A stretch of 64,000 bases of DNA from Okamejei kenojei (lineage: Eukaryota), in NCBI GenBank assembly GCA_035221665.1, contig JAVHYY010000112.1, positions 558,001 through 622,000 of the forward strand, written 5' to 3'. Positions within the stretch are counted from its first letter, which is position 1. Each line of letters begins with the position of its first letter. The notes beneath the pieces were generated by a model. It was not told where the DNA came from and did not search any database. It saw nothing but the letters and a program-made list of their open reading frames with translations. The position numbers and the translations under genes were made by a program. This document shows, in pieces, positions 1,151 through 62,774 of the stretch.

Positions 1151-1571
1151 TTGTACTCTTTGGATTTTTGTATTGTATGACATATGTGATATGTTCTCCC
1201 GGAGACTGAAACACAGAAATCATGTATTTGTCCAAATGGTCTTAACATCCTTAATCGGTTATATCATTGAATTCAGGATTTTCACTCAGATACGGTGGAC
1301 CGAGAGGGCTTCCTGTTTAATGCACGAAATGAAGATGCAGCTGCCTGCCGTGAGGACCCGAAAGCCAGTGATGCAGGTTTACGCAGGTAGAGTGGTTCCT
1401 ATCCCTAACGCCTGCGTTATTATTAATGGAAATAATATGAAACCTAATTCGGTAATCGATGGAAATTGAAGGGACGGATAGAACGATTTCTGAAACGACA
1501 GAGGATCAAGAAGCTTTCTTTGCGCATAAAATGAATTGGAACCGAAACCCCAAGATCTGCTGAGCTATTGG

Positions 1572-1610
1572 ACTTTTTGTACGAGAATTTTACTGGTTTT
1601 GAACACCGTG
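1572..1610 (-). other. 23-RSS of V2
   Basis: CACGGTG + 23 nt + ACAAAAAGT. Confidence 0.92.
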
Positions 1611-2137
1611 AGCGTCGCTGCACACATATAAACCGCATAGTCGCTCAGCTGCAATTCTAAGATAGTCAGACTTGCGAATTTCGCCGAGTTCTCGTGGACT
1701 GCAGAGAAACGTGTTTTCGCAAAATCTGCCTTGTCGGCAGTTCCGCTGGTTTATTTCACCAGAATAAACTCAATCTGTGCATCTGAGTGTTGCCCATACC
1801 AGAGCAGATTATTGGTGCCGCTCCATGTTGTTTGGTAGGTACAGTTTAAAGTGACATTTCCTCCTTTCATCTCCACGACAGAAGACAACGGATTAGTGGC
1901 AGGATCCCCGTGGCCTCGACCTGAAAAGGCGTTTAAAACAATAATACGTGAGTGCGGCGAATATAACATACGGTAGAAATCGGCATCCGTGGAAAACAAC
2001 GATAAGGAAATGTGTGTGTTGCAAGTTTGGAAGAATGGATTCCTCGCGGTGGCAGGGTTAACATTATTTTTACCGCGAATAAAATCCTTACCAAAGAGGG
2101 ATGCAATGACGAGCAACGTCGCGAGGATATTGTGCAT
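1611..2137 (-). pseudogene. TCR V segment 2 (alpha/delta-like), in-frame stop
   Basis: 46-nt leader MHNILATLLVIASLF/G (2137-2092) with GTAAGG donor and TTTTCAG acceptor. V exon 1920-1611 reads GGNVTLNCTY...LLWYGQH...ILVK*TSGTADKADFAKTRFS...LTILELQLSDYAVYMCAAT, with TAA at 1753-1751. Confidence 0.9.
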
Positions 2138-5046: not shown

Positions 5047-6455
5047 ATGGGAGTTCTTGTACTCGTTGTACTGTGGATGAGGTTCATCGTAGGTAAGGCA
5101 GTTATGATTTTCCCCAATATAACTAACGTCCTGGGGGCTGGAGAGCAGACGAATTTCACAGTCACAGAGATTCAGAGGAAAGACACAGATATATAGAAAA
5201 CCCTGGATTGTCTGACCACTGGTCGGATCTGTTGGGGTGAGTAGCTTTCCCGTTGGTTAGGAAAGCCGTAGGCACCAATCACAAAATGAAATTATGATTG
5301 CATGGAGATGAAGACAATGCATTCACCTGTGCGTTATTGGCAGCAAATACAATGGAGCATCAAACTAGTTGGTCCCTGATAAACTGCGCGAATTGTGGAG
5401 TAACTTATTCATTGTCAATGGAAATATAAATATGCCAGTCGGCTGGAAAAGATGCAGCTATCACTTGCGACGAAATTGCCATGAATCGAGAGCCTGAGCT
5501 ACAGGGATAGTTTAGGCAGTCGTCAATTGTATTCCTTGGAGCGCAGAAGGTGAGTGGTAATAGTCGGACGTGTATACATTAGGAGGGGCATTGAGAGTAG
5601 CAGGAGAATGAAGATTCCGAGCGTAGGTTTTAGGTGCGAGCATAAATGGCCACTTCTTCCAAAACGGGCAGTGTGTATATGGACCGAGCTACAAAATGAT
5701 GTAGGTGAAACTGATAGCTGAATCTGGTGTCAGGGGTCATGTGGGGAATTCAGAATAATGGGTTAGGAGGGAGAGATATATCAACCGTGATCGAATGGCG
5801 GAGTACACTTGATGGACCGAATGGCCCAATAGTGTTCCCATCACTTATGACCTGATGCGCTTATGACAATAACAGCATTCAGAATAATTTTGAACTGGCA
5901 ACGACAAGACAACTTTTAGAGGGATTTGAGGCAAACATGGATACAAAGATCATGTTAAGATTGGGCAGCTCGATCGAGTGGTTGTGTCTGTGTTGTTTGA
6001 TTCAATGGATCTCCGCATCAGATCCACTCGTGGAGTAACACATATGCTATCATCTGCACTGTAATGAAGTATGTTAACTTGTATGTCAATATAATTGCGC
6101 GCTTTCCCGCCGATGAGGATTGTATTCAAGTTACGACTAATGTTCTTATTTCGTGTCCCAGATCTCAGCAATGCCGATTCAGTGACACAACGAGAGCCCG
6201 CCGTCAGGCGGATGGAGGGCGATCATGTCACTTTTATTTGCCAGTGAAGCTTATTATTTATACTGGTATCGTCAGTACCCAGGAAGAAGGCCCGAATTCG
6301 TCATGTGGAGAGACACTGACAGCAAGTATGACTTTCAAGCGGATTTCGATAAAGGCCGCTTTGTTGATGTGATGGATAAGACAGCGAGAGAGTATAGACT
6401 GACCATTCCTGGGCCACGGTTGTCCGATACAGCGGTATATTACTGCGCTGGGGCT
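5047..6455 (+). pseudogene. TCR V segment 3 (delta/alpha-like), frameshifted
   Basis: 46-nt leader MGVLVLVVLWMRFIV/G (5047-5092) with GTAAGG donor; acceptor at 6160-6161. V exon DLSNADSVTQREPAVRRMEGDHVTFICQ, then a frameshift near 6245, then SEAYYLYWYRQYPGRRPEF...KGRF...YRLTIPGPRLSDTAVYYCAGA. Confidence 0.92.
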
Positions 6456-6494
6456 CACAATGATGGGTGCGAGCTAAATCCTCGTACAATAATT
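6456..6494 (+). other. 23-RSS of V3
   Basis: CACAATG + 23 nt + ACAATAATT. Confidence 0.88.
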
Positions 6495-6909
6495 GTCGTT
6501 TTCGCGTTACAGCTGTTGTATGTTGCGGGCAACATGCAACCGCTGCGGCGGCACTAACAGTAGAATGCAATTACTGAGCGCACAGAATGCAAGCGGAAAC
6601 CTCAGCGACTAGACTTAAAACAATTCAGACGGAGTCCTGCATTCCAACGCTTGTTGCAGTTAATGTATGAGCCGGTGCTGTCACTTCCTGCAGCTCAGAA
6701 CCTCAATTGTTAATGTCAGTTGCTTCGCTTGTTCCAACAACCTGTTGTCACTGGGCTCCTCTTGATCAGCGGCAGCTTTCGTTAAACGTGGAAATGAATC
6801 TCGGTTAAGTCGTTAAACTGCTATTTGATGAAGAGAGGGCAGGTGGAGCACAGACAACATTTAATGTTTAAAGTAAAAATCGCTTGTCCAGTGGTGATGT
6901 GGCGCTGCT

Positions 6910-14804: not shown

Positions 14805-16463
14805 CATATAACAATTACAGCACGGAGACAGGCCCTCTCGGCCCTTCCATTCCGTGCCGACCATTTGTTTTCCCCTAGTCCCATCTACCTGCACTCAGAC
14901 CATACCCCTCCATTCCCTTCACGTCCATATACCTATCCACTTTACTCTTAAATGTTAAAATCGATCCTGCCTCCACCACTTCTGCTGGAAGCTCATTCCA
15001 CACAGCCACCACCCTCTGAGTAAAGAAGTTCCCCCTCACGTTACCCCGAAACTTCTGTCCCTTAATTCTCATGTCATGCCCTCTTGTTTGAATCTTCCCT
15101 ACCCCAATGGGAAAAAACGTATCCACGTTAACTCTGTCTATCCCTTTCATCATTTTAAAGACCTCAATCAAGCCCCCCTTAACCTTCTCCGCTCCAAAGA
15201 ATAAAGACCTAACTTGTACAACCTTTGTCTGTAACATAGTTGCTGGAACCCTGGCAACATTCTAGTAAATCTCCTCTGTACTCTCTCTATTTTGTTGACA
15301 TCCTTCCTATAACTTGGCGACCAAAATTGTACACCATACTCCAGAATTGGTCTTACGAATGCCTTGTACAATTTTAACATTACTTCCCTACTCCTATATT
15401 CAACAGTCTGATTTATAAAGGCCAGCACAACAAAGGCTTTCTTTACCACCCTATCTACATGCGATTCCATCTTCAGGGAACTATGCACAGTTATTCCTAG
15501 ATCCCTCTTTTCCACAGCATTCCTCAATTCCCTACCATTTACCATGTACGTCCTATTTTGATTTGTCCTGCCAAGATGTAGCACTTCACACTTAACAGCA
15601 TTAAATTCCATCTGCCATATTTCAGCCCACTTTTCCAAACGGCCCAAATCTCTCCGTAGAGTTTGAAAATCTACTTCATTATCCACAGCACCACCTATAT
15701 TAGTATCATCTGCATACTTACTTATCCAATTTTCCACCCCATCATCCAGATCATTGATGTACATGACAAACAACAGTGGACCCAACACAGATCCCGAGGC
15801 ACCCCACTGGTCACCGGCTTCCAACCTGACAAACAGCCATCCACCATTACTCTCTGACATCTCCCTTTCAGCCACTGTTGAATCCATCTTGCTACTCCGC
15901 CATTAACACCCAAAGATTGGAACCTTCTTAACCAACCTTCCATGGGGAACCTTGTCAAAGGCCTTACTGAAATCCATATAGACAACATCCACTGCTTTAC
16001 CCTCATCAATTTCCCTAGTTACCGCTTCAAACAATTCAAGAAGGTTTGTCAAACATGACCTTCCAGGCACAAATCCATGTTGACTGTACCTGATCAGACC
16101 CTGTTTATCCAGATGCTTATATATATTATCTCTAAGTATCCTTTCCATTAATTTGCCCACCACTGACGTCAAACTAATAGGTCTATAATTGCTAGGTTTA
16201 TTCTTTGAACCCTTTTTAAACAATGGAACAACATGCGCAGTACGCCAATCCTCCGGCACTATTCCCGTTTCTAATGACATTTGAAATATTTCTGTCATAG
16301 CTCCTGCTATTTCTACACTAACTTCCCTCAATGTCATAGGGAATATCCTGTTAGGACGTGGAGACTTATCCACTTTTATATTTTTCAAAAGTGTCAGTAC
16401 TTCCTCCTCTTTGAATCTCATAGTTTCCATAGCTACTCTACTTTTTCCCCTTAACTCACAGAG
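14805..16463 (-). mobile_element. CR1 LINE RT and 3' tail (5'-truncated)
   Basis: RT ORFs 15903-16430, 15168-15887 and 14875-15237; tail TGTTATATG abuts the GPCR TM7 fragment. Confidence 0.95.
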
Positions 16464-16464
16464 T

Positions 16465-16509
16465 CACATCTCTGACCGACTCCGCCCTGTATTACTGCAC
16501 TTTCCAAGG
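16465..16509 (+). pseudogene. TCR V segment 4, 3' remnant only
   Basis: TSLTDSALYYCTFQG directly followed by a 23-RSS; the 5' part is replaced by CR1. Not in the ORF track. Confidence 0.85.
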
Positions 16510-16548
16510 CACAGCGATGGAAAGTAGCTTCATATCAGTACGAAAACT
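16510..16548 (+). other. 23-RSS of V4
   Basis: CACAGCG + 23 nt + ACGAAAACT. Confidence 0.85.
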
Positions 16549-16746
16549 CCAATTGCCTGTGGCACAGAACAGCTGCCTGTTGCAGGTTTTGTCAACGCAT
16601 GCCAAATGCAACCGCAACGCTTAGGCCACGCCGACAGGAAACCGTGGGTACCTCGGTTCAAACTGTCATCAACCGTTCCCATTAGCACCGTAGCCACGAA
16701 GCCGATTCAAAATCGTGGACATTGTTGCAAGATTCACCATGGTATC

Positions 16747-19900: not shown

Positions 19901-21239
19901 CCAGGATGGCGTTATCGTCAAGGGATATAAAGTTGTAGTCCCGTCCTCCCTGTTTGACTTTTACATTTGTGCAGCCCATAGCGGACACCCTGGGGTCGAT
20001 GCAACACTCGCCCACGCTCAGTGCCAATTCTACTGGCCAGGAATGGCCAAATATATCCGAGACCGAGTTTCTGCCTGCTCCACGTGCAATAGTCTTGCTC
20101 CACACCAGCAGCGACAGCCCCTGCTGCAACAACCAGCTCCTGCCTTGGCTTGGTCCTCGCTGGCTGCCGACATTTTCAAGTGGCGTGGTGACCACTACCT
20201 TGTCCTGGTCGACTCGTACTCAAACTGGTTCGAAGTGGATTTACTGACATCCCTCACGTCGGAGATGGTGATCCGAAAGCTGCGGAAACACTTCTCCACT
20301 TTTGGGACCCCTGTCAGGCTGCAGACTGACAACGGCAGGCAGTTTACCAGCCGAGAATTCAAAAGTTTTGCCGACAAGTGGAATTTTGTGCATTTCACCA
20401 GCAGCCCAGACTACCCACAGAGCAACGGCCTGGCAGACGGGCCGTCCGCTGCGCCAAGCTTCTGATGGAACAGGCGAGACTATCCAACTCTGATTTGTAT
20501 TTGGACCTCCTGAACCTCATGAATGTTTCCAGGGATCCGGCCATGGGATCACCTGCTCAGCGTCTGATGTCCAGAACTACCAGATCTACCATCCCGATTG
20601 CCAAGCGCCAGCTGAAACCTCGGGTGCTGGAGCCTGCCTCCGTGCAGAGGCGAATTCAGGAGAAACATGACAGCCAGCGGCGTTCCCACGATCGGTCGTG
20701 CAGACCACTCGATCCTCTGTTGCCTGGACAAGTTGTTCGGTTGCAGACCGCCGGTGGTCACTCCCGTCTGGCTACCGTGATTGGGGTGGCCGACTCACCT
20801 TGTTCGTATCTGGTCGACTATGAAGGTACCATCTACCGAAGAAGCCGACAACACCTGCTTGCGGTTAATGAGCCGAAGCCGCAGCACCCGGGGCCCTATG
20901 CCCCGCCACTCTCCTACCAGCAGCCGGCTGCCGTCCGAGCCAGTTTTCCCTGCATGCCTCGATCCCCATCTCGAGCGCCTGGTTCCCCTCTGCGCGGATC
21001 CCCTGTTGCCGGTCGCGGTTTTCCCTCTCCTGTTTCTCCCACCCCACTGCCCTTCCCTGGTTCCCCAGCTGCCTCGCGTCCTCCTGTTTCTTCTGCTCTT
21101 TCGGGGGAAGGGGGAGACATCCGTACGCGCTCGGGCCGGGTCAGCAAGCCTCCTGTTCGTTACGGCGATTTTGTTTAATTCTGCTGTTTAATTCTGTTGT
21201 CGTGACAACAATCTGTTTTTGATTTTCTAAGGGGAAGGA

Positions 21240-24787: not shown

Positions 24788-27700
24788 TCAAATCATATCA
24801 ACTTTATAATTTTCAGTCGTGGAATATAAGACAGAAACTATCGGTAATGCGTAAGATTTGAACCATGTTTTAATTAGATTGAATGGGTATTGAACAGCGC
24901 CCTTCAATTGTCTTCTGAACTTAATTTGCGTCCCCGCGTAAATGCACGAGTTGGTGCAAGAACTGAGAAGCTCCAGCATGTATCCGCTTTCCTGTAGGAT
25001 AAACTTTGGGTCAGCGGAATTGGAGCCGCTGGCATAGTTATTGCTGGTCAATTGCACAAACAGAAAATTCACGACATACGTCAATCGCAGCAGGAGAAAA
25101 CTACCCGATATCGCCATGAGTAAAATGATAGACTTTCTCCTGTTCTCCATCTCCGTGTCATTCTGTCGGTCTCCATTGCTCTGGGCCCGGAGCCTCCTGC
25201 GGGCTTTATTCGCCGTTAGGATGTATCTGATCGTCAGAACATTGAGCAGAAAAATGAGAAGGAACGGGACACATGGGTTTAACATCCGGTGCAGCCAGTC
25301 ATATACCCTCCATGCAATGGAAGAGTAGTACATTTCGTTTATCGTGCAGAACCAGGGCACGTTATCAACCACGTACACTGGCTCGTATATAAAGTAAGAA
25401 GGGACGTTTTTGAAACAACCCACCGCACATACAGTTGCAATAACGGCTGCCGCGGTTTTTTCCGTGCAATATCTAAGCTTCCGTCGGTGACAGCAAATGG
25501 CGATGAATCGATCGAAAGTGAAGGCGACGGTCAACCAAACAGACGTGTCCTTGGATGCCCAGCTGAGGAGAATAATAAGTTTGCAGGCGGGAATGGTGGA
25601 CAAAAAACTAACAGGGAAATAAATAGCACGTAGCCGACTCAGTATCACTGCGGTGATAATAACGAGGAGATCCGTCACCGCCATGAATACAAGGTAGCGG
25701 GTGATACACTTCGTGAGGCCGCATCTTCCTTGCGCCAGGATCACAATGGTCAACGCGTTCGCTGTTTGAAAGAGATGAAGAGATAGAAAATCCAGTAAAA
25801 TTGCTCTTAAATAACAGAGAGAAAGAAATAAGGCTTAAAAGGAAATTAAGGCGTGGAATTTCAAAACGAACAATATTGGCAATAATGTGCAGGGAGGAAT
25901 TGCAGATGCTGGTTTAAACCGAAAGAAGACACACAATGCTGGAGTAACTCTGCGGGACAGGCAGCATCTCTGGAGTGGAATTCCAGATATGCTGCCTGTT
26001 CCGCTGTGTTACTCCAGCACTTTGTGTCTAATATTGGCAAAACGCCTGGCGAGAGTTATAATCGTCTGCGACTTAACTTCAAGTGAATTTACAGAAGCTT
26101 ACAAAACCACTCATAGTAGTATTTAAAGGACACGAGGGTCTGCACATCAATGGTATTGTGAAGCGTATGATCGGAAAGGGCACACCAGATCACAGGAGAT
26201 CACATGTTTAAGAAGGTACTGCAGATGCTGGAAAATCGAAGGGAGACAAAAATACCAGAGAAACTCAGCGGGTGAGGCAGCATCTGTGGAGCGAAGGAAA
26301 TAGGCAACGTTTCGGGTCTGAAGAAGGGTTTCGGCCCGTTACCTATTTCCTTCGCTTCATAGATGCTGCCTCACCTGCTGAGTTTCTCCAGCATTTTTGT
26401 CGACAGGAGTTCACATGATTGATTGTAGTGATGTTCATTCTCGTGGAGGACAGTAAGTTTTGCAAAGGTAATACAACTTGAAAATTCTTCCGGCATTTAC
26501 TATGCGCAGTTATGCGGACGAGTGATGAGTCCACACGGGGAACGAACATGAAAAACGCATTGTATCCATGGAATCATTTAGCCAAAGCCAAGCGGAAAAT
26601 CCCAGTGCTACATTTCGTCTGAAGAAATGACAGATCGCTCAGTACTCAGCAAAGACAGAAATATAGAAGCGCGAAATGCACTGAATAATTGCGCTCAATG
26701 CACGTTGTATTTGCATACGAGCAAAAGAACGTTCACTCTCATACAAAAGCTGGAAAAAAGTTATTTTTCTGTCTCACTGTCGACCTTTACTGCCACACGA
26801 TGTTAAGCACGGAAATGCATTATCACGATAACCAATTACTGCAGAACATCAGCGGCAGCATTATCGGTCTGAATATCATCAATGAAATATAATTAATACA
26901 AAATGTCTTCAATCAGGAAACACCCGCGGAATGGGAACCGGAAAGGCATGCACGTATATACAATTAAGGAGAAGTAATGTTAGTGTCGGTTATTGGTTTA
27001 ATAAATTTGCATTTATGGTTCAATACTATTCTTAATTTGTTTATTAAACGCCATTGCCAAATCCAAAAGATAGATGCATATATTAAATGCCGCAAAGCAG
27101 GATACTCTGAGTGAGCCCTTCTGGAGGTGCAACCAAAAAAAACGATCTGATCCAGGAAAGAGTACAAAATTAACGGTTTAAACGGTTTAAGGCTCCGTAT
27201 CTTGTCACTTTAGTTTCGTTTACGTTTTAGTTTAGTTTAGTTTAGTTTACTACTCCATGTACCGTTGAAAAGTGAAAAGGCTTTTTTTGTTTGCGCGGTA
27301 TGGCGTCAGCAGAAGTACTAAACATAATTGAAATCAAGCCGTTCACGAAGTGCAGCTACAAGATGAAGAGCATAACGGTTAGTGCAATAAAAAGTCCAAT
27401 AATGTCCGATCATTGGTAGTGTCCGATTAAAATGCAGTCCAATTAATTATTATGACAGGATATATACCGTTATAGAATTACAAGCATTAGACAAATGCTG
27501 CGCTCGATGTTAGCTGATCAGTGCAGTGTAGAGGAAACCAGCGTGGGCATAGAGTCATACAGTGTGGAAACAGGCCCTTCGACCCAACTCGCCCACACCG
27601 GCCATCAATGTCCCAGCAACCCGAGTCCCACTTGATTGCGCTTGGTCCAAACCAGTCCTGTTCATGTACCTGTCCAACTGTTTCTTAAACGACTAGGTAG

Positions 27701-29509
27701 TTCCAGCCTCAACTACCTCCTCTGGCAGCCTGTTCCATACACCCACCATCCACTGTGTGAAAAAGTTACCTCTCGGATTCCTAGTAAATATTTTCCCCTT
27801 CACCTTGAACCTATGTCATCTGGTCCTCGATTCCCCTACTGTGGGTAAAAGACCCGGTAAAAGACATCTACCCGATCTATTCCTCTCATGATTTTATACT
27901 CCTCTATAGAATCTCCCCTACTCGTCCTACGCTCTATGGGATATAGACCCAGCCTACTCAACCTCTCCCTAAAGCTCACACATTCTAGTCCTGGCAATAT
28001 CCTCGTATATCCTTTCTGAACCCTTTCAAGCTGACGATACATTTCCTATAACATGGTGCCCAGAACTGAACACAACATGCTAAATGCCGTCTCACCAAAG
28101 TCGTATACAACTGCAACATGACATCCCAATTATATATTCAATACTCTGACTGATGAAGGCCACAGTGCCAAAAGCCTTTTTGAACACCTTATCAACCTGC
28201 GACTCGACCTTCATGGAAGCATGTACTTGTGCTCCTAGATCCACTGCTCTATAACACTACCCAGCCTACCATTTACTGCGTAGGTCCTACACTTGCTTAC
28301 GTCCCAAAATGCAAAACCTCACACTTCTCTGTATTACATTGCATCAACCATTCCTCAGCCCACCTGGCCAATCGATCCAAATCCTGCTGCAGTCTTTCAC
28401 AACCATCTTCACTAATTGTTGCTAATCTTACACTCTATGTTCTCATCCAAATCATAGATGACAAACAGTAACGGGCCCAACCCTGTGGCACACCACTAAT
28501 CGCAGGCCTCCATTCTGAGATGCAACCTTCCACCACCACCCTCTACTTCCTCCCATGGAGCCAATTTGCGTTCCATTCAGCTATCTCTCCTTGAATGCCG
28601 TAAGATCTAACCTTCCAGAACAGCCTACCATGCTGCGCCTTGTCGAACGCCTTAATATAGTCCTTCTACACGACATGTACACTTACTGCCTTCAGCGTTT
28701 TTGCTCGCCTCTTCAAAAAACTCAATCAGATTTGTGAGACAGAACCTCCCATGTAGAAATCCATGCTCACTGTCCCGAATCAGCCCTTGACATCCAAATG
28801 CCTGTATATCATATCCCTCGGAATACTCTCCAGTAATATACGAACTACAGATGATAATCTCACCGGCCTCTATATCCCAACATTTTCCTTCCAGCCCTTC
28901 GACAAAAGAGGCACAACATTTGCCACCCTACAATCCTCCAGCATCTCTGCTGTATTTAAGGACGTTTCATAAATTTCAACCAGGGCTCCCGCAATGTCCT
29001 CTCTAGTTTCTCGCAGAGCCCGCGGATGTATCTGATCAGGCCCTGGATATTTGTCTACCTTCAAACACGACAGTACCTTCAGTACTTCCTCGACGATTAC
29101 CCTGGCTGCTCTTCTAAATAGATCTGTAAATAGTTAAGAAATAGTTAAAATATGTTCATGGCACCTCGAGAACATCGATAGATTTTAGTAGATTTTGAGC
29201 AAATAAAACAACGTAAAATAGGTAAATATTCAAACAATGAGATCTGAAGCATTATTGTGGCATCGTCGGTTTTATGTTAGGTATCGATTCCATATCAAGT
29301 CTTCAGGGATCACCGCGGAGGCACGATGGTAGGAAGTGTACAATAGCCATGCTGTGCATGGTAAGGAGGCAAAACATATAATTAACACAAAGTTAAATAT
29401 GCTACTTTGGACTGATCGTCCTCAATCGTCAAACGTTACCTGGAACACCGAAAGCTGCAAGAGCAGAATAGTAAACTGCAAAAACCAGGCCATTCCCAGG
29501 CGCGTGCAT
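24788..29509 (-). CDS. Intact two-exon GPR139-like class A GPCR (347 aa): exon 1 29509-29440, exon 2 25761-24788
   Basis: Exon 1 MHAPGNGLVFAVYYSALAAFGVP + G|GTAAC. Acceptor AAACAG continues in frame as ANALTIVIL..CGLTKCITRYL..MAVTDL, FTFDRFIAIC, ECL2 PWFC, TM7 LSSCTNSCIY. No stops. Confidence 0.9.
25883..26029. mobile_element. Fold-back Penelope-derived mini-element with 11-bp TSD (intronic)
   Basis: TSD AATATTGGCAA at 25872-25882 and 26030-26040; inverted arms. Confidence 0.75.
26207..26402. mobile_element. Fold-back Penelope-derived mini-element with 15-bp TSD and a partial hammerhead core in the loop
   Basis: TSD ACAGGAG(A/T)TCACATG at 26192-26206 and 26403-26417; about 65-bp inverted arms; CTGAAGAAGGGTTTCGGCCCG in the loop. 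Confidence 0.8.
27550..29110 (-). mobile_element. Degenerate CR1 LINE (intronic)
   Basis: KVDKYPGPDQIHPR, LERVQKGYTRILPGL, CR1 3' tail. Confidence 0.85.
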
Positions 29510-29567
29510 TTTCCTTGTGAACGCAGTGCTGATCACTTGCACTCTGAAGCAAGCACCTTGCCCCATC

Positions 29568-29575
29568 TATTTATG
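29568..29575 (-). promoter_or_regulatory. TATA-like box of the intact GPCR
   Basis: CATAAATA about 60 bp upstream of the ATG; similarly placed TATA motifs precede two paralogous first exons. Confidence 0.5.
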
Positions 29576-29844
29576 CCAGGCGGCCGTCCCTGGGGTGGCT
29601 GTTGCCATGGATCATTAGTGTTGTTAGCCACAATTCTCCGAACAAATAGATTCTCGCTGTTTTTAGTGCTGATCCGAATTAATCGACTAGAAAACTCTTA
29701 CAGCAATGATAACCGTGTTTGAAGACGTTTTGGATATTTTAGTGTATAAATGCAAATCGTATGTGTAAGAAGGAAAAACGGCTGCTGGTTTAAACCGAAG
29801 ATATACATAAAACGCTGGAGTTACTCAGTGGGACAGACAATACC

Positions 29845-32572: not shown

Positions 32573-32639
32573 AGGCCAGTTCATCATCGAGAGCATCGAA
32601 CCCGCCGACCCGGCGGTGTATTATTGCGCGACATATGTA
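32573..32639 (+). pseudogene. V segment 5, 3' remnant
   Basis: GQFIIESIEPADPAVYYCATYV followed by a 23-RSS; 5' part replaced by the Penelope fragment. Confidence 0.85.
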
Positions 32640-32678
32640 CACACTGAAAGAAACCGCGGGGGGCCCCACACAAAAACG
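32640..32678 (+). other. 23-RSS of V5
   Basis: CACACTG + 23 nt + ACAAAAACG. Confidence 0.88.
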
Positions 32679-32720
32679 TTTCTCCTGTTTACAGCTGCTG
32701 CCGGCCCTGATAGCGCCGGT

Positions 32721-32759
32721 TGTTTTTGTGCAGGGACAGCCAAACTACTTGCCTCCGTG
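32721..32759 (-). other. 23-RSS of V6
   Basis: CACGGAG + 23 nt + ACAAAAACA. Confidence 0.8.
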
Positions 32760-33048
32760 GGACTCAACCCGCCGTCAAACACCACGGAGTCTCCCAGCTG
32801 CGTTCCAGACATTGTTCGCGAGATGGTTAACTTCGAAAGATCAAGCGGCGTCGAAAACCGTGTCCCTGTATGTTTCGCCACCTCGCTATACTTGTGTAGG
32901 AGCAGAGGAAATACTATGGAGTCACCGGAAATCTGTCGGTAACAGAATATATTCGGCTGGGTGCTGATAGTTGTGTAATAGCAGTGGATCTGGATATCGG
33001 CCCCTTCATTTGCACTGATGGCAGACGCGTTCTGTTGCACGTAGTCTC
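32760..33048 (-). pseudogene. TCR V segment 6 (alpha-like), open frame but core Trp and second Cys lost
   Basis: GDYVQQNASAISANEGADIQIHCYYTT..NIFCYRQ...RFSTPLDLSKLTISRTMSGTQLGDSVVFDGGLS; leader not identified. Confidence 0.82.
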
Positions 33049-33099
33049 CTGTACCGTACAAATTAATGAAAGAATGAATGAATATGTTTACTGGCCAAG

Positions 33100-37299: not shown

Positions 37300-38844
37300 A
37301 AACGCATATATTTGAATCGTGCAGCAAATCTGCCCTGAACCTCCTCTGGGTCACCATGTAAATGTCTGTGTTTGTGCAGGAGCTCAGCAGGTGAAGCACA
37401 ACCCCAATATCTTCAAACATTACAGAGGTCTGATCCAGGTCCTGTGTGCAAAGGCTTTCACCAAGCTATGAAATGTGCCATAAATGTCGCGCAGAGTACG
37501 ATAAAGGTGATGGTAATAGGTAGGAGTAAAATGATGGACCGTCTGCGGTTCACCGACTCTGGATCCATCTCCGTCACTTTACCTCCGAGGTCCCGGAGAT
37601 TTCGTCGGTCCCGACTGGCCACGACGATACGTCTGACGATGAGCGCGTTAAGGAACAAAATAACACAGAGTGGGGCAACTGGGGTTAACAACTGTTCGGT
37701 CCACGAACATGCTGCCCCTGTCTATACTGTACCTGCCGGCACAGTATAGACAAACGTGGATATAGCGCAACTCAGCTGGCTACGCTCATTGTAGATATTG
37801 AAAACTAAAGGCCAGGCGATGTTTTGTAAATGGAAGAGCGCGCTGACGTTCACTATAACCACCGCCGCCGTTCTTTCAGTGCAATATTTGTTTATCATAG
37901 TCTGTGTGGAAATGGTCTCAAGCGATCAAACGTGAAATCGACCGTGAACCAAACTGAGCAGTCCATGGCCACCGGAGAGAGGAAGCGAATGAATCTGCAC
38001 ACAGCGGTGTAGGATAAGAAAGACTTCAGCCAATAAAGCTCCGTAATCTGATGTAATATCACCCCGCAGACAATAGCCGAGAGGTCCGCTGTCGCCATGG
38101 ACACCATGTAGAAACATAGAAACATAGAAACATAGAAATTAGGTGCAGGAGTAGGCCATTCAGCCCTTCGAGCCTGCACCGCCAGTCAATATGATCATGG
38201 CTGATCATCCAACTCAGTATCCCGTACCTGCCTTCTCTCCATACCCTCTGATCCCCTTAGCCACAAGGGTCACATCCAACTCACTCTTAAATATAGCCAA
38301 TGAACTGGCCTCAACTACCCTCTGTGGCAGAGAGTTCCAGAGACTCACCACTCTCTGTGTGAAAAAAGTCTTTCTCATCTCGGTCTTAAAGGATTTCCCC
38401 CTTATCCTTAAGCTGTGACCCCTTGTCCTGGACTTCCCCAACATCGGGAACAATCTTCCTGCATCTAGCCTGTCCAACCCCTTAAGAATTTTGTAAGTTT
38501 CTATAAGATCCCCTCTCAATCTCCTAAATTCCAGAGAGTATAAACCGAGTCTATCCAGTCTTTCTTCATAAGACAGTCCTGACATCCCAGGAATCAGTCT
38601 GGTGAACCTTCTCTGCACTCCCTCTATGGCAATAATGTCCTTCCTCAGATTTGGAGACCAAAACTGTACGCAATACTCCAGGTGTGGTCTCACCATGACC
38701 CTGTACAACTGAAGTAGAACCTCCCTGCTCCTGTACTCAAATCCTTTTGCTATGAAAGCTAACATATGTTAGCTATGTACCGCGTGATGCATTTCGAGAG
38801 ACGGCACTTTCTGCGCGACAGGACAACAATCCCCAACAGGTTCA
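37300..38844 (-). pseudogene. GPR139-like GPCR exon 2 pseudogene (second subfamily), interrupted by CR1
   Basis: Acceptor CTTCCAG, then VNLLGIVVLSRRKCRLSKCITRY | CR1 | MVSMATADL..FTFDR.., LTPVAPLCVILFLNAL, LLSSCTNTDIY; frameshifts. Exon 1 not found. Confidence 0.88.
38111..38774 (-). mobile_element. Young 5'-truncated CR1 inserted in GPCR exon
   Basis: Uninterrupted 183-aa RT C-terminal ORF, perfect (TTTCTATG)n tail, TSD ATGTA at 38106-38110 and 38775-38779. Confidence 0.93.
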
Positions 38845-38899
38845 CTGGAAGAACAAGAGAGAATGTATTATGGGACGAGCGAAACATATGACCAACTTC

Positions 38900-52810: not shown

Positions 52811-53499
52811 AATTAACCCAGCAAATTGTGTTTCTTTCATATTCACTAACGGAAGGATGATGCAATCTGATTGATGATGAAGGGAGTCATATCAGGTATA
52901 AGTAGAAAGATTATTTTAGAGGCCGCAGCTTGACTGTTGTGTATTGCGTATGCTCATTTTGTGTATGACGGAAAATGCACGCGCCGGGAAAGGGCCGTCA
53001 TTTGCTGTATACTGCACTGCTCGTGCTGTTTTCGGTGTCCCAGGTAAATTACGCGTCTAAATCCGTGAACAACTAACACTGCTATGCTTGAGTAATTTTC
53101 TGCAATTTATGCTTTTTAATCTTTCTTTTTCAGCCGCCGTATATTATATTGAAGGTAATATCCTCAAATCCTCACATATTTTATCGCTGCGACGTCTGTT
53201 TAAAAACTACGAACATGATCATGTTTCTGATCATTGGAACAGGTATATAAATTCGCACCCTTTTCGAACACAAGCTCTTTTCCTTTCACATCGCGCCCTG
53301 AATCCTGCCTGATATGTGTTCTAATACAGCTGACTATTATTATTAATATTAATGTCAATTAATGGCAGCCCCGCCGACAGTTTGTCTCTCCTTTTCATAT
53401 GTTTTCTTGTTATGTTTACTGTGTTGAAAAAGTTTGTGTTAATGTTCTCTGCTTTGTTTTATGTTAGGGCTGGGCAGGGGGTCACGGGGGAGAATTTTG

Positions 53500-54112
53500 T
53501 TACATCACCTTGCCGGAGATGCGATTCATTTCAGGCTCATATCTCCGGTTGCTCTGCGGCCAAACATCGTGGTGCTGGAGGCGTTGCTCGGGACTGACTT
53601 TGAGCCCCACCTCGAATCATCGACTTGACATCGGAGCCGATCCTTTGCCTTGGATCGACGCTCGAAACGCGGCCTGCGGATTTATCATCCGAAACACTTG
53701 GTCTAGGGTTGAGACCGACATCGGTAGCTCCGAAAGCAACATGACGTTCGACAAACACCGACCAGCGGTCAGATCGCCTGGCGCGGGGAGCTGACATCCC
53801 CCGATGAATGAGCTTTATCGCCCGGATGAGCTGGCCCGCCGCCGGCCACGAGAGGTAAGATCGTCCCGACAACAGAAGGTTAGAGGCTCCCGAGCGCTGG
53901 AGGACAAACAATGAAAAAGAGTGAACATTTTTCACCTTCCAACACAGTGAGAAATGTGGAGGAGTCACCGTGGTGGATGTTTATGTTAAAATGTATTTCG
54001 TGTTTTTGGTTGCTTTGTACTAGTATTACTGTAAGGCAAATCAAATTCCTCATATGTTGCAAAACTTACTTGGCTAATAAAGCATGATTATTATAATTAT
54101 TATAATTATGAT
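53500..54112 (+). repeat. Interspersed repeat with LINE-type 3' end
   Basis: GC-rich body, then AATAAA and an (ATTATA/G)n tail; family not assigned. Confidence 0.45.
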
Positions 54113-55837
54113 ATTCTTGTTTTTGATCATTTCTCTTAAGGCCTCCTGATTCATTCTACGCCTATTCACAAACCAAGAGTGAGCAGCATAAAATAGGAAC
54201 AATTTGTATGATAAAATGACACCAATACAGTCGCTATAACGAACGTTGTGTAAGACGACATTGTTTTAATAGGTTATTATTTTGTATACGTTTCTGCGTC
54301 GTTTTCCCTCTCCGTAGATGCTCTCGGAGCCACATTTACTGTGCATAGTTTGAGACTATTTGCATCTTGGTTTATATTTCATCAATCATACTTCGCGCAA
54401 TTAACAGTCAGTATGAGAATATATAGTTGTAAATGCACGCTTGTCAATACGTGTAAATATAAATACACCGTTTATACGTTACATTTCATGGATGCTGCAA
54501 AAAATATACAAATGCTCATTTCAGGTTGCGCGCGATTTTCATGAGCAGAACGTGTTCTCTTTGATAACGTATATTTTTATTTCGGTTCGTAAACAGATTA
54601 TTATTTGGAATGATAGCATCGCTTTAAATCGTCGTGTATTTTATATGAACGATTGCGTTGGTCCAAGTTACTGGTTAATTGACGAGATCAATCCTGCCTG
54701 GATTCCCACTTTTGCAATGAAATGTTTAACTGAGATGTTAAAATGTTCCCGTTAACTACTTGGAAAATCACTGGGATCACCCCAGAATGCCTCCCTAAAA
54801 CACCAGCAGACAATTGATGAACCTCTCTCTGTTGATTTCCAGTTGCCGGCTCTCACAGACCTTAACACATCCACAGATACCATCCACTTCTCTTTGAGTC
54901 ACTGCATTTAGCAAAGTTGCAAAATGTTTAGATGTAAAACATCAAGTCTGCAATTTATCCCATCAGATAATGCATAAAAATAAGATTTGACACCAAATTC
55001 ACTTTCATATCTTCAGTATTAAAACAATTATTGACATTTAAATACTTGGAAATTAGCATCTTGTTCCCTATTGCTTTTCCATTAACTTAACACAAATGCT
55101 GTGATCGAGGACAGTCAAAAGTTTATAGGTTTCTTAATAAATAAGACACCTGAAATAAATTTCCAGTTGTTATAGAGTGAAACATTCGGAAACAAATATG
55201 AAACATTCTTACTCGGATGACCTGGAATTAAAGCATATAATTAGTTACATAATTGTAGGCAATTACAATATTCAATTACTAGATCCAAACATCTATCCAG
55301 TTCTTAAGAAAAATATAACATTTTTAAATAGCCCGTGTCCAAATAGCATTCGCGCAATAATTCACAATATAACATGATGTTTAAATCTCATTGTCATGAA
55401 TTTATAGGCCAAATGGAAGAATTTAGTGTTTAATTCTGGAAAATTAATGGCCATTGCGAGTGGAATATTGTGGAACGCGATCGTTTGAAACGTTTTTAAT
55501 AAACCACATAGAACGGATGTCGGAGCGATTTCTCTGCAGCAGGTGAACAGCCTGAGAAAGACCGACTCCGACACGCAGGTGAAATCGGCATTTTAATACC
55601 GCCGCCCTCTCAAAGGCGCACACGGTCAGTGGCAGAACTGCAGCGCCGCTGAAGGTAAGTTTTATAACATACCTACTGCATTGATCTTTACTTCAGCCTT
55701 ACTTCTTGACAGGTTGGTGTGATCATACGCTCTAAGTGGCTGAGTGGGTAAGGCATTCGCTTTAATATCCAATACATGGACGTTTACCTTTGTGCTGGCG
55801 CAATTCCCGGTCATTCAAAGCGATTACCTTATTTTCG

Positions 55838-56128
55838 CGGCGGAACGGTGGCCCTCCTGCCTTATAGCGCCAGAGACGCGGGTTCGACCCTGACTGGTGG
55901 TGCAGTCTGTACGGAGTTTATATGTTTTGCCGTGACCGAGTGGGTTTCTTCCGGGAGCTCCGGTTTCCACCCACATTCCAAATATGCACACGTTTCTAGA
56001 TGATGGCTTTGGCAAAAAAATGTTAACTTGCCAATTTGTCTGGTATATTGCTGCTGCTCGATGATCGCTTGTCGGCGCTGATTTGGTGGGACGAAGGTTC
56101 TGGTTCACCGCTGCATTATAAACTAAAC
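55838..56128 (+). mobile_element. tRNA-derived V-SINE (HE1-like)
   Basis: B-box-like GGTTCGACCC, core GTACGGAGTTT..GGGTTTC..CTCCGGTTTCC..CCACA, AAACT tail. Confidence 0.75.
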
Positions 56129-57914
56129 TGTGGCACGTACTTGATGAGACACTGCAACTACGCCAGTGTTATGTTTAACATAATTCGGCACTTGAAAACG
56201 ATCAGATGAATACCCGTTTCGCCTTTGCAATCCAAAGAAGGGTCTCGACTCGGAACATCACCCATTCCATCATTCCAGAGCCGCTGCCTGCTCCGCCGAG
56301 TCATTCCAGAAATTCGTCTTTAAAATGAACGAAATATGCAAAGGCACAATGTTTACATTGAGTAAATCACGCCGCTGCATGAACTCGTCAGCAAACATGT
56401 TTCCATTGGGAAAAGGCCACATAAACAAATACTCTCCCCAGAAAATACTTGCATACTTAAATACAATTTAATAATGTTATTTACTTTAAGTAAATCATTT
56501 GTTTCATTGACTGATATAAAATACTTGAATTAATACTTCAAGAAAATACACATATACTGACCGAAAACTAGGCGGTGGCAAGGCTTGAGAGATACGTTTT
56601 ATCACTACTCACAATCTGTTTCCATCTGTCCTACAGCGAATTTGATGACGATTGTGATACGATCACAGGGAAGATGCGGACTCTCAAAATGTATCAGCCG
56701 CTATCTGTTGTCCATGGCGGTGATGGACTTCCTCGCCATCGTTGCCGCAGTGATATTAAGTCGTCTTCGAGCTATTTATTTCCCCGTTAGCTTACTATCC
56801 ACCACTCCCGGCTGCAGTCTCCTTATCGCGTTCAGTTTGTTTTCCAAAGACACTTCCGCCTGGTGAACGGTGGTGTTGACCTTCGATCGTTTCATCGCCA
56901 TTTGCTACCCACATCTGAAAGACCGATATTGCACGGAGAAAATCGCGACTGTCGTCATCGGAACGGTGTGTGTATTGTACTGTGGAAAAAAAACATACCT
57001 TTCTTTTTTACATATGTGTTGGATAATATACCTTGGTACTGCAACATAAAGGATGAAATATTATACTTTACTCGCATGGAAGATATATGACTGGCTACAT
57101 TGTATGTGTGCCGTTCATGCTAATTTTGCTGGTCAATGTTTTGACGGTCCGGCACATTCTAGCGGTCAGTGGAGCCCGCAAGAGACTGCGAGCTCAGAGC
57201 CATGGAGATAAACAGAATGACCCAGAGATACAGAGCAGGAAAAAGTCCATCATTATACTATTCGCCATTTCGGGCAGATTCCTGCTCTTGCATCTCAGAT
57301 TTACTAATGTTGTGAATTTTGTTATGGTGCAATTTTCTATCAAGGATTATGCGAACAATTCTGATTCCACCAACCCAATGTTTATAGTCCAAGAAAGCGG
57401 TTACATGATGGAACTGCTCAGTTCATGCACCAACACGTGCATCTATGCGGGTACGCAGACTACATTCAGAGAACAGTTGAAGAATCTGGTCAAATATCCC
57501 TAGTAGGTAATTTGCAATCGATTCAAACAAAGGAACGACTGAAATATTTGGTCTCATATTCCTAATAAACAAGTAGGAAGTTAATTGCCAACGGAGTAGT
57601 AGTTGTTTATTTTAATTTTTTTTTTAGATACACAGTCTATGTTCTGAATGATGAGTACTGTGAACTCGCGGCAATCGTTGGTGCGACGCGAAAGGGTTGT
57701 AAACTCGCTAACATTTATAGACAATAGGTGCAGGAGTAGGATATTCCGCCCTGCGAGCCAGCACCGCCATTCAATGTGATCATGGCTGGTCATCGCCAAT
57801 CAGAACCCCGTTCATGCCTTCTCCCCATATACCCTGACTCCGCTATCTAATTAATGATATTTAATAATATTGCACCTCGTTCTCGGTTCACTTTCTGTTC
57901 GACTTCTGGAACAT

Positions 57915-59040: not shown

Positions 59041-59755
59041 TACCTCCTGTGGCAGCTTGTTCCACACACTAACTATCCTTCGTGTGAAAATGTTTCCCTA
59101 CGGTTTCCTATTAAATATGTTTCCCTTCTCCTTGAACCTATGTCCTCTGGTAGTCGATTCTTTCGGCAAAGGACTGTGCATCTATCCGAATCTATTCCTC
59201 TCATGATTTTATATGTCTTGCTCATTTCACCTATAGCTTTACTTTCGATAGGAGTTTTCCGCATAGAGAAGGTAGTTTAAGCACGGTATCTGTTTGGAAC
59301 TTTACACAATCTATATCATCCGCTGCTAAAACAGTAGATTCTCTTTAATCCGAAAACCTCGTCAATGAGCAAAGATACGTTGTTTCAATGATTAAAGGAA
59401 ATCATCAATACAACTCGTTGCACCTATTCAATTGAAAATCTTCGCTCGTTTCGAAAACAATATATTCCAGGCATATGTATACATATTCATGAAATCACAG
59501 AAGTTGAATTATTGAACGGGCCACATGGGAATGCGTAGATGAGGCGAGGCTGTACCAAGCAGCTGGGCGTGAACGACAGGGCGAATGGGCATAACATGTC
59601 TACCCATTAAATGCTGTCTTTTCATTTAAACCCTGAAGCTTAGCTGGTCACTCGTTTGTGTTATATTATTCTAACTATCACTTTACCAATGTAATTAGTT
59701 TTCCAGTGCAATTGATCGGATATGGTAGCACGCGGTACAGCTCCTCCCTGAACTT

Positions 59756-59871
59756 AGCTGGTAGAAGGGTGTCTGTCAGTCTGAAGAAGGGTCTCGACCC
59801 GAAACGTCGCCTATCTCCTTCGCTCCTTAGATGCTGCTGCACCCGCTGAGTTTCTCCAGCTTTTTGTGTAC
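59756..59871 (+). mobile_element. Penelope pseudo-LTR fragment inserted in GPCR helix 8, 13-bp TSD
   Basis: TSD CCTCCCTGAACTT at 59743-59755 and 59872-59884. Confidence 0.85.
59777..59813 (+). ncRNA. Minimal type I hammerhead ribozyme-like motif
   Basis: CTGAAGA-A-GGGT(CTCG)ACCC-GAAA-CG-TC: core boxes, perfect stem II, palindromic ACGT in place of stem III, GUC cleavage triplet; stem I weak. Confidence 0.65.
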
Positions 59872-62067
59872 CCTCCCTGAACTTGCGCTGTGTCACGGTG
59901 TAAATGGCCGTGTTGGTGCAGGAGCTCAGCAGCTGAAGCATCAATCCAGCCCTTTCCAATTCTGCTGCAGGGTTTCTCCATGCCTTGTACACAAAGAGTC
60001 TCAAACTTCGAACCGCAATAAAATGTGCAACACGTGTGGCCTAGAGCAGGATGAAGCAGCTCGAGATTGCCGGTAGTAAAACGACCGACCGTCTGCGGTT
60101 TACCATCTCCATGTCTTTCTTTTTCTCCCTACCCCTGTTGTCCCAGAGACTCCTGCGGATCCGACTGACAACGGAAATTCGCCTGACCGTGAGCGCGTTA
60201 CACAACAAAATCAGGCAGAATGTAATCACCGGAGTGAACAACTGTTCAGTCCAAGAGAACACCACCCATTCGGGTTGAGTGTAAAAATATACGAATTTCA
60301 GGCAGCCCAGTTCTCTACACGTTCCCACGATAAAAAGAGTATGCAAAGGGAAAGGGTATGTTTATGAGTCAGACGAAAGGGATCACTGTCAGGATAGCAA
60401 TCGACGCGGATCTCTCGGTGCAACATTTGGTTTTCTTTTTCTGAGTAGAAATCGCAACAAAGCGATCAAAGGTGAAAGGGAGTGAGAACCATACAGAACA
60501 ATTCACCGTGACGGATGCCAGGAAAATCGTTAAGTTGCACACCGGAGTGCAGGGCAAGGAAGCATTCCACCAATACAGATCAGCAATCCGGTGAAATATC
60601 ACCTCACCGAGAATCTCAGAGAGGTCCGCGGTCGCCATGGCTAGCATGTAACGAGTGATACACTTGGAAAGGCCGCACTTGCCACAACACAGGATCACAA
60701 TCACCATCAGATTCACTGGGAAATAATGAAAACAGAAACGGATTAATTGTGTGGTGCACGCGTTGGTGGGCGGGAGCAGACAGAGTAATGTAAACATGTG
60801 TCGCCAGTAGTAGAGACTATTTGTTTAACGAATCAATATTTGGGACAATCATCCGTCAAACGTTTGGCAGAAAGATGTTCATTCAGTAAATTATTCAAGT
60901 CCTGATTACCAAAATGAGTGGGATTGCCTTATGTATAGACGTATGACATAAAGATGGAAATATCAGTACAAAAGGCAATCTAATTTTGGTATCCTGGAAT
61001 TTAATCTGAAAATGATTGAAATCCTGTTTACCAAAATTAGTGGGATTGCCTTTTGTACTAATCGTCACACCATTATGTGAATCGTTTGATTGTTGATGGA
61101 AAATATAACACATTTTCAAGGTCCTCTTGAAAATGGACAGTGTATCTCAAAAAAGAAATTAATAATCCAAATTACGGTCGATCAAATAAGAATTAAGAGG
61201 GGATCCTCCCAATATCAATTATCTGATTTCATTTTTATAACGCTAAATTCATATTTTATTGCAGCGTTATTTTTTGTTGCTGAGACGTGAGCAAATTTGC
61301 ATCGCGGGCATTGAGTCAATCGAGTTCTGGATTAACGCGGACTGTTTTGCATTGGACTTTCGAGAATGCATTTCCGAACATGAGACCAAGGAAAGCATTT
61401 CAGTGCAACGCTGCAAATATAATTACAAACACCCTTCACAAACACGGTTAACAACATAACGGACACGTATTTCCTGCCGTACAGCGGGCGGCTTCCGTAC
61501 TGTAAGTGAAAAGAACAGGTGCTGGAGTATCTCAGTGGCTCAAGAAATGTCTCTGGAGGGCATAGATAGGCGACGTATCAGCTCGAGGCCCTTTTTCAGA
61601 CTCCGATCGGAAGAATGATCCCAACCCGATACGTCGACTGCGTTGGTCCTCCAGAGATGCTGCAAGACTAGCTTAGATTAACGAGATCTTTGTTGTCACG
61701 GCACGATCGCTGCATTTGTAGTTTATATTATCTGTATTCCTAGTTTGTCGAGCAGGTTGTTCGTACGACCTTCAAATCTGTCTCTGCGAAATTATCCCGA
61801 AGCAAATTTAAGAGTGATACAGAAAATGCATTGCCAAATGACTGGACGGGGTGTGTTTATCGTTCTGCCAAGTGCAGTATCACATTGGAAATTAAACTAC
61901 CACTCACAGCGAGGACGAAATTGCGCTTCACCTCGCAACAGCGCAAGTACGGGCATTGATTTTAGTAAAAAGCCGCCAGGGCTACATTTCTGCCAGCTTC
62001 AATGAGCGGCATCCATTAAAGATACCAACGCGCTTCCTCGCTCCTAAGATGCACATCGCTTATTTTT

Positions 62068-62300
62068 CTTTAGTTTAGGGATACAGCGCGAAAACACGAC
62101 CACCGGCCCACCTAATCCGCACCGCTCACGCACACTAACAGTAGCCTACACACACACGGGACAACTGATTTTACTTTTATGGAGCTTGGGAGGAAACCGA
62201 AGATCTCGGGGAAACCCCAAAAGGATAGGGGGAGAACATATGAAATCCGTACAGACAAGCGCTGTAAGACAATTGCTCAAGCGCTGCGCCAGCGTTCCGC
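62068..62300 (-). mobile_element. Degenerate V-SINE
   Basis: Homologous to 29845-30175. Confidence 0.6.
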
Positions 62301-62774
62301 CCTAACCCCTGCTGGGCTACTCGGTATGTTCTCTTAATCTTTAATATTGTACGCTTTTCAAACAGTCTTTGTTAGTTCCATGCGATGTGCCCACAATTAC
62401 CTAGCAGGTACACCGATTGCTGCCAGAATCGGATAATACACAAGTCCTATTATTTCTTCGATCGGATTATCATGCATTTTAATGCACCGGTCCAGGCGTT
62501 CACTCCTTGTGCAGCCGCTCAGCTGTTGTCAGCGATGCAAACAAATAACTGGCATATTTATAAAGTAAATAAAGGGAGAAACAGGCAACGAGAGTACATC
62601 CCTGTGGACATTACGTACACACTTTGAACAAACATCTACTGTTTTCCATGTAATATTAAAAATAACCTTATTCTGAAGAAAAAGGTCCGAAGAAGGGGTT
62701 CGGACCGAAACGTTGCCTATTTCCTTCGCTCCATAGATGCTGCTGCACCCGCTGAGTTTCTCCAGCCCTTTTGT

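Follow-up and report, generated by a model that had tools for sequence, protein, structure and literature searches.

What is one unbroken receptor gene doing among broken copies of its own kind and scattered V segments? The question is raised by the window analysed here, a stretch of 64,000 nucleotides of the skate Okamejei kenojei (assembly GCA_035221665.1, contig JAVHYY010000112.1, positions 558,001 to 622,000), whose minus strand encodes, between positions 29509 and 24788, a predicted two-exon G protein-coupled receptor (GPCR). According to the trees described below, this gene belongs to an elasmobranch family sister to GPR139/GPR142, and in our estimate the family has about an even chance of being a chemosensory, probably olfactory, receptor repertoire. 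Such a repertoire fits because the family is large, clustered and of fast turnover, displays variable ligand pockets, and shares a promoter module in which an EBF-like site precedes a TATA box.

Structure and Integrity of the Receptor Gene

The coding region comprises the following elements:

29440..29509, minus strand: coding part of exon 1, N-terminus and most of the first transmembrane helix (TM1); junction as in the thorny-skate record P0417
25762..29439, minus strand: phase-1 intron with a long interspersed nuclear element (LINE) reverse-transcriptase remnant at ~27550-29100 and short repeats
24788..25761, minus strand: coding part of exon 2, from the last part of TM1 through TM7 and helix 8 to the stop codon; PF00001 E=1.9e-16

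Exon 1 (29509-29440) runs for 70 nt from the ATG up to a phase-1 GT, that is, 23 codons and one base; the GT-AG intron (29439-25762, phase 1, 3678 nt) reads GTAACG...TTTCAAACAG; and exon 2 (25761-24788) adds 974 nt, the joined exons giving 1044 nt, or 347 residues and a stop. The LINE is identified by its resemblance to other reverse-transcriptase frames in the window, and the repeat bins by high read depth. Two in-frame acceptors upstream of the chosen one, 25833 and 25803, also leave an open frame, and the chosen junction reads GVP/AN; since the NCBI model of the Amblyraja radiata (thorny skate) orthologue P0417, a computed model, has the identical junction, and the true GPR139 uses the same place, 29440/25761 appears to be the real junction rather than 25833/25803.

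Exon 2 scores 60.8 bits against Pfam 7tm_1 (PF00001; cut-off 30.5), and an alignment-based model of the little-skate orthologue P0001 (94% identical, from a record that carries a spurious insert) discloses seven helices at a mean predicted local distance difference test (pLDDT) score of 76, the single-sequence fold being unusable (pLDDT 43.5). Together with D-R3.50, N7.49xxxY7.53 and the cysteines of TM3 and the second extracellular loop (ECL2), these features place the product among the class A (rhodopsin-like) GPCRs. The initial annotation of this stretch had read the gene exactly, including the intact two-exon, 347-residue frame, the 70-nt exon 1, the 3678-nt phase-1 intron, the TATA-like box, and the DRF, NSCIY and TM3/ECL2 cysteine features. 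It had also called the gene the only clearly intact one in the 64 kb, and indeed every other receptor copy (four) and every V segment (five) in the window is broken. Being the sole intact gene says little, because exon 2 is open at 11 of the 25 receptor loci in the 576 kb examined of the same contig (C176).

The window also encodes, at 24788-24855, a C-terminal extension of ~20 residues past the usual family stop, present in the little-skate orthologue as well. Pieces derived from the intron LINE are spliced into the little-skate records P0001, P0416 and P0009 (the orthologue and one paralogue), replacing exon 1 in P0416, and the Logan-derived family proteins P0014, P0075, P0096 and P0426 read as unspliced genomic frames. 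The receptor family is probably often mis-annotated in databases.

Family Size and Relationship to GPR139 and GPR142

One exact TM3 motif returns 379 matches in the genome (control, 0), and since it is present in 34 of 64 sampled family genes, this suggests ~700 copies, a rough figure in which pseudogenes and perhaps haplotype duplicates are counted. Of 2724 candidates from the genome search, 124 were scored; a protein search gave 1414 matches, and among the best 120 every named one is from an elasmobranch, mostly under the automatic name 'probable GPR139'. The expanded GPR139-related family of two-exon class A GPCRs postulated at the outset is thereby borne out, with at least 379 copies. Its clusters are spread over many scaffolds, often close to scaffold ends, and the orthologues of the subfamily to which the gene belongs lie on one 59.9-Mb thorny-skate chromosome. 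The odorant-receptor domain, searched in the same genome at E<=1e-15, yields two pieces from one locus. Column entropy across the family is 1.55 bits in the outer helix halves and 0.77 bits in the inner ones, so that the pocket side varies about twice as much as the side facing the G protein.

The phase-1 junction lies at the same place, after G[LV]P, in the receptor gene and in the true GPR139 of the genome, which shows common descent, and the shared intron position and tree placement assign the gene to the GPR139/142-related superfamily. Further resemblances to GPR139/GPR142, the closest solved relatives by sequence, comprise the absence of Pro7.50 and the presence of His5.43. On the other hand, the protein is 20-31% identical to 14 GPR139/GPR142 proteins, its branch is separate, and a better candidate for the GPR139 orthologue lies on C22 (91% identical to a ray GPR139 over the tested part); elasmobranch GPR142 proteins likewise exist as separate sequences. 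In two trees, the first built without the frameshifted gene C176:339687 and 18 near-duplicates, a GPR139+GPR142 branch (SH-aLRT, the Shimodaira-Hasegawa-like approximate likelihood ratio test, 100) leaves out the receptor gene, and the family forms its own branch (SH-aLRT 99), which joins single genes of salamanders, the coelacanth, a teleost and one further record. Vertebrate sequences fall on one side of the branch to the invertebrate relatives (support 94, in an unrooted quick tree). Taken strictly, the initial placement of the gene inside the GPR139/142 clade is therefore refuted. Unlike GPR139/142, which lack them in the alignment, the family keeps the TM3 and ECL2 cysteines, and it counts hundreds of copies as compared with one.

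The single-copy sister genes (coelacanth, teleost, salamanders and skate C24) share with the family one clade, the same exon junction and both cysteines, although they are only 31-35% identical to it. The coelacanth-type gene is matched by a single skate orthologue of its own (G000:C24:32834656-32838013, 62% identical to the coelacanth protein and also found in a teleost) and so does not correspond directly to the expansion; the C24-type gene is apparently an unnamed third vertebrate relative of GPR139/142. In the region of the true GPR139 (G000:C22:1174500-1233290), the start of exon 2 occurs twice, ~31 kb apart, and the copy read is frameshifted, through an assembly error or a broken duplicate. 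A literature search on GPR139-type genes in sharks and cartilaginous fishes returned no paper describing the family, whose genes may nevertheless appear in supplementary files to PMC11979771 and the Squalomix preprint.

A Promoter Module Upstream of the First Exon

The promoter of the receptor gene displays four recognizable words, all on its own strand:

29641..29648, minus strand: forkhead-like TATTTGTT
29612..29617, minus strand: homeodomain-like TAATGA, separated by 15 nt from the downstream EBF-like site
29587..29596, minus strand: EBF/O-E-like palindrome ACCCCAGGGA, matching 7/8 consensus positions, 11 nt upstream of the TATA box
29568..29575, minus strand: TATA-like box CATAAATA, 66 nt upstream of the ATG

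To place these words in the family, 84 first exons were collected; eight without 1000 clean upstream bases and one false exon (C384) were dropped, leaving 75 genes whose promoters were sorted into 25 mutually unalignable groups. A de novo motif search recovers, in this order, an EBF/O-E-like palindrome (TctCcctGGaGATt), TATAAATA, and a forkhead-like motif (TGTTTGTT, TGtTTGTT); TRTTTRY is present in 0.53 of proximal and 0.18 of distal sequence, and TAATTG in 0.36 of family promoters as compared with 0.08 of distal and 0.10 of shuffled sequence. Matches of at least 7/8 to the EBF consensus TCCCNNGGGA occur in 0.34 of the groups versus 0.02 in distal and 0.03 in shuffled sequence. The OMP site given in PMC5608512 fits that consensus.

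Leave-one-group-out training recovers the same palindrome, with held-out scores of 5.44 for proximal, 2.14 for distal and 2.00 for shuffled sequence and 2.92 for 17 V promoters; 22 of the 25 groups score above their own shuffle. The position of the site is also constrained: 52% of 21 groups have a match of at least 6/8 in the bin 9-15 nt upstream of the TATA box, versus 0-14% in seven other bins, with a second cluster at 30-36 nt. Among 17 newly fetched held-out promoters, the rule finds a TATA box in 12 (5/17 without), and the best match falls in the 9-15 bin in 12/12; six of the eight that are unlike the training set reach at least 6/8. Most family promoters thus carry an EBF/O-E-like site at a set distance before the TATA box. 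In the true GPR139 and the C24 sister gene, a TATA box is not seen near the ATG, position being taken relative to the ATG rather than to mapped start sites.

Words for E2A, PU.1, NF-kB, IRF, RUNX, ETS and CRE are not enriched in family promoters, and E-box, RUNX, ETS and CRE were dropped as family traits, as were the RFX half-site (0.09 vs 0.03) and the ATF/CEBP-like TGATGCAA (0.13, confined to one subfamily). In several promoters of the gene's own subfamily (G000:C176:370566, 553068 and 611044), TGATGCAAT, presumably an ATF/CEBP composite, directly precedes the homeodomain word; it is lost in the receptor gene itself. The V-gene promoters at G000:C176:131000-189000 are TATA-less and often have CCAAT and AACGCCCC words in common.

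A Candidate Chemosensory Repertoire

PMC3247239 and PMC12547500 give O/E, homeodomain and TATA as the enriched elements of mouse olfactory receptor (OR) promoters. The skate family combines O/E, homeodomain and TATA words in its proximal promoters with a large, clustered, high-turnover membership and a variable pocket. Its likeness to mammalian OR families extends to the many pseudogenes, to the promoter words (PMC3247239) and to the interspersion with T cell receptor (TCR) V segments (PMC2275272); it differs in being an unrelated class A branch (7tm_1 match only, no 7tm_4), in having an intron within the coding region, and in the fixed spacing between the O/E site and the TATA box. With the Lhx2/Ebf composite motif of the Greek Islands (PMC5608512, PMC11643329), several family promoters share TAATTG beside a degenerate EBF site, although the spacing is one base longer in 5/21 groups and one base shorter in 2/21, the arrangement is absent from the receptor gene, and the family sites lie in promoters instead of enhancers.

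In a chemosensory repertoire, EBF-family factors would switch on single members in sensory neurons with homeodomain and forkhead help, and the individual receptors would recognise different water-borne ligands while coupling to a common G protein. PMC10116579 gives cartilaginous fishes ~10-50 known olfactory receptor genes, and the thorny skate perhaps fewer than 10 V2Rs. For the catshark it reports labelled cells, all seven probes summed, at ~13 per mm of a neuron layer that is nearly continuous; many catshark olfactory neurons would appear to have no assigned receptor.

Several observations weigh against this reading. EBF is also a B-cell factor, active in many neurons and in fat cells, and higher variability of the outer helix halves is common among GPCR paralogues. 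The promoter groups share ancestry and are not independent origins; the 30-36 nt bin does not fall significantly short of the 9-15 bin (p=0.08); family promoters show no enrichment of the published Greek-Island composite (0.20 vs 0.17 shuffled); octamer-like words are mildly raised (0.18 vs 0.10); and 9/17 V promoters reach an EBF match of at least 6/8 (shuffle 0.29), although only 1/17 reaches at least 7/8 and only 1/17 has a TATA box. Family clusters adjoin immunoglobulin (Ig)-domain immune genes. The Arg-Glu pairing in the pocket, described below, counts as a single evolutionary event, and the contact is putative. RNA support was found for neither the gene nor any paralogue: no RNA run containing the stretch was listed, and the 29440/25761 joint is absent among the joints listed for contigs of four sequencing runs. 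Three of these runs, guessed to be RNA although two are flagged as probably DNA, have almost no exon 2 cover, so that the result speaks neither for nor against expression. In PMC11979771, the top 50 genes of a catshark brain and olfactory library include no GPCR, as expected for sparse receptors, and this lends no support.

The rival that survives best, unlikely as we judge it, places the receptors on EBF-positive neurons, sensory or central, away from the nose (in the skin, gill, taste system, lateral line, gut or brain), where they would respond to endogenous peptides or external chemicals, as would suit their neuropeptide-receptor ancestry. The nearest non-vertebrate look-alikes of the family are protostome FMRFamide, MIP/sex peptide and myosuppressin (Srw-type) receptors, which share the TM3-ECL2 cysteine pair, though at ~25-29% identity and in a separate clade; fold matches are peptide receptors as well. 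Srw-type receptors have expanded as chemoreceptors in nematodes and molluscs. A common origin of these receptors and GPR139/142 is reported in PMC8514136, and brain expression of GPR139 in PMC5430874. On the other side, hundreds of fast-turnover copies would suit open-ended environmental ligands more than a few endogenous peptides, and homeodomain, O/E and TATA words together make up the OR-promoter combination.

Neighbouring V Segments and Immune Genes

Neither the V-segment neighbourhood nor the promoter module figured in the initial annotation. The window contains, besides the receptor gene:

1570..1950, minus strand: broken V segment with a 23-nt-spacer recombination signal sequence (23-RSS), heptamer at 1610
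6186..6500, plus strand: broken V segment, 23-RSS, copied with the receptor gene to C362 and C955
11937..12164, plus strand: paralogous receptor gene, fragment
16450..16550, plus strand: V-segment 3' remnant, 23-RSS, heptamer at 16510
32575..32680, plus strand: V-segment 3' remnant, 23-RSS, heptamer at 32640
32720..33060, minus strand: decayed V segment, 23-RSS, heptamer at 32759
37325..38851, minus strand: paralogous receptor gene, broken
52975..57530, plus strand: paralogous receptor gene, broken, exon 1 near 52975, exon 2 56603-57530
59711..62477, minus strand: paralogous receptor gene, broken, exon 1 near 62477-62403

At 17031-21178 (plus strand) lies what resembles a Gypsy-type long terminal repeat retrotransposon, with gag-, protease-, reverse transcriptase-RNase H- and integrase-like frames broken by stops and frameshifts.

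The neighbouring V segments comprise V-set exons and RSSs with 23-nt spacers, and they look like TCR alpha/delta V segments, a tentative label. A PDB search matched antibodies only, protein and Atlas searches gave no names, and a search for the TCR-alpha C family found none. Over the 576 kb of C176, 43 V segments with an RSS (29 open) and the 25 receptor loci are interleaved from ~297 kb on. A 2.4-Mb receptor cluster on C15 contains IgH-like constant exons and a V segment. C1-set (Ig-constant-type) genes also lie in or beside receptor clusters at G000:C15:56.94 and 57.05 Mb, C30:1.3-9.0 Mb and C17:25.4-26.0 Mb, so that the tie to immune loci is wider than the V segments.

Such linkage might denote co-regulation in a lymphocyte or immune-cell receptor family, driven by EBF1 in B cells and sensing microbial or host peptides, a possibility that we consider rather unlikely. 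The EBF-like promoter site, the 43 V segments among 25 receptor loci, the receptor clusters around C1-set genes on C15, C10, C17, C26 and C30, and the slight octamer excess speak for it, whereas E2A, PU.1/ETS, RUNX, IRF, NF-kB and CRE words are not enriched, the adjacent V promoters are of a different, TATA-less make-up, and many clusters near scaffold ends have no C1-set match among those listed. Mammalian OR genes, too, are interspersed with TRAV segments (the V segments of TCR alpha; PMC2275272). The position among V segments likely reflects a shared duplication-prone neighbourhood, comparable to that of the mammalian OR genes, rather than a role in TCR assembly.

Residues of the Pocket and the Toggle Position

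Two residues set the pocket of the predicted protein apart:

25085..25087, minus strand: Arg249 at 6.48, where 85% of the family, as well as GPR139/142, have Trp
24971..24973, minus strand: Glu287 at 7.42, co-occurring with Arg6.48

Four residues, F3.33, H5.43, W6.48 and N7.38, are needed for activation of GPR139 by Trp and Phe, according to PMC5430874; the corresponding residues here are Trp, His, Arg and Tyr, so that only His5.43 is kept. Of 218 family sequences, 84% have DRF, 98-99% have both cysteines and only 9% have Pro7.50, and N[TS]xxY is family-wide; in this alignment DRF, N[TS]xxY and the missing Pro7.50 are family traits, not peculiar to the gene. Its own oddity is the Arg6.48/Glu7.42 swap, common to a batoid subfamily. 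Arg or Lys occupies 6.48 in 17/218 sequences, 16 of which have Glu or Asp at 7.42, Trp3.33 and Lys3.36, and an acid at 7.42 occurs in 0/201 of the others. The 16 sequences come from skate, ray and sawfish where named and, because all fall in one tree branch, represent one evolutionary event. Given the known closeness of 6.48 and 7.42, a salt bridge between Arg and Glu may replace the usual Trp toggle in this subfamily, which would then provide a natural experiment for studying the toggle switch of class A receptors.

The initial annotation had extended the aromatic-amino-acid sensing of GPR139/142 to this family. A sensor of that type is improbable: GPR139 is the best solved-structure match by sequence (E=4.5e-10), and the intron position and His5.43 are retained, but the clade is separate at 20-31% identity, the genome has its own GPR139 on C22, and Trp, Arg and Tyr stand in place of Phe3.33, Trp6.48 and Asn7.38, with Pro6.50 and Arg6.51 lacking as well. 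With one of the four Trp/Phe-site residues left and the gene outside the clade, the extension is not supported.

Selection and Gene Turnover

The gene is under purifying selection. Compared with nine paralogues, dN/dS is 0.11-0.22 at dS 0.84-1.58, and in a gap-free exon 2 contig of a related animal, synonymous changes outnumber nonsynonymous ones 19 to 10 among the 29 listed of 32 (Fisher p=3e-6), which upholds the early suggestion that selection has kept the gene. Orthologues are open in other skates (P0001, P0416 and P0417). The near-copies on C362, C955 and C988 are 91-97% identical, and all are frameshifted or stop-bearing; a block of ~18 kb with the V segment at 6186 and the receptor gene was duplicated to C362 and C955 at 89-98% identity. 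On these comparisons, the predicted gene is maintained by selection within a family whose copies arise and decay quickly. In one low-depth contig of a related animal, codon 260 (window 25054, run X5) reads as a stop, which is absent in a second sample with the same organism code; it is a possible null allele or error.

That the gene is a passenger of V-segment duplications, a recent copy whose frame happens still to be open, as the copied block with its frameshifted receptor copies and the codon-260 stop might suggest, is highly improbable, being largely refuted by dN/dS and opposed by the open orthologues, the synonymous excess of 19:10 over the closest outside contig and the intact promoter words.

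Implications for Elasmobranch Olfaction

Cartilaginous fishes are described as poor in GPCRs and olfactory receptors in PMC8455134 and PMC10116579, a picture with which at least 379 copies of one family in a single genome contrast; the family was concealed under the automatic name 'probable GPR139'. A bolder proposal, to which we give somewhat less than an even chance, is that sharks, skates and rays smell mainly through these several hundred genes, an unrecognised olfactory family that would descend from a neuropeptide-receptor lineage sister to GPR139/142, be driven by the EBF-TATA module and sit among TCR V segments in the position that OR genes have in mammals. If true, it would resolve why animals with large noses have few known olfactory receptors. 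If immune or neural, the genes would still constitute a very large uncharacterised receptor family; if olfactory, they would mean that a smell-receptor repertoire evolved independently once more in vertebrates and would overturn the 'sensitivity over discrimination' account of shark olfaction.

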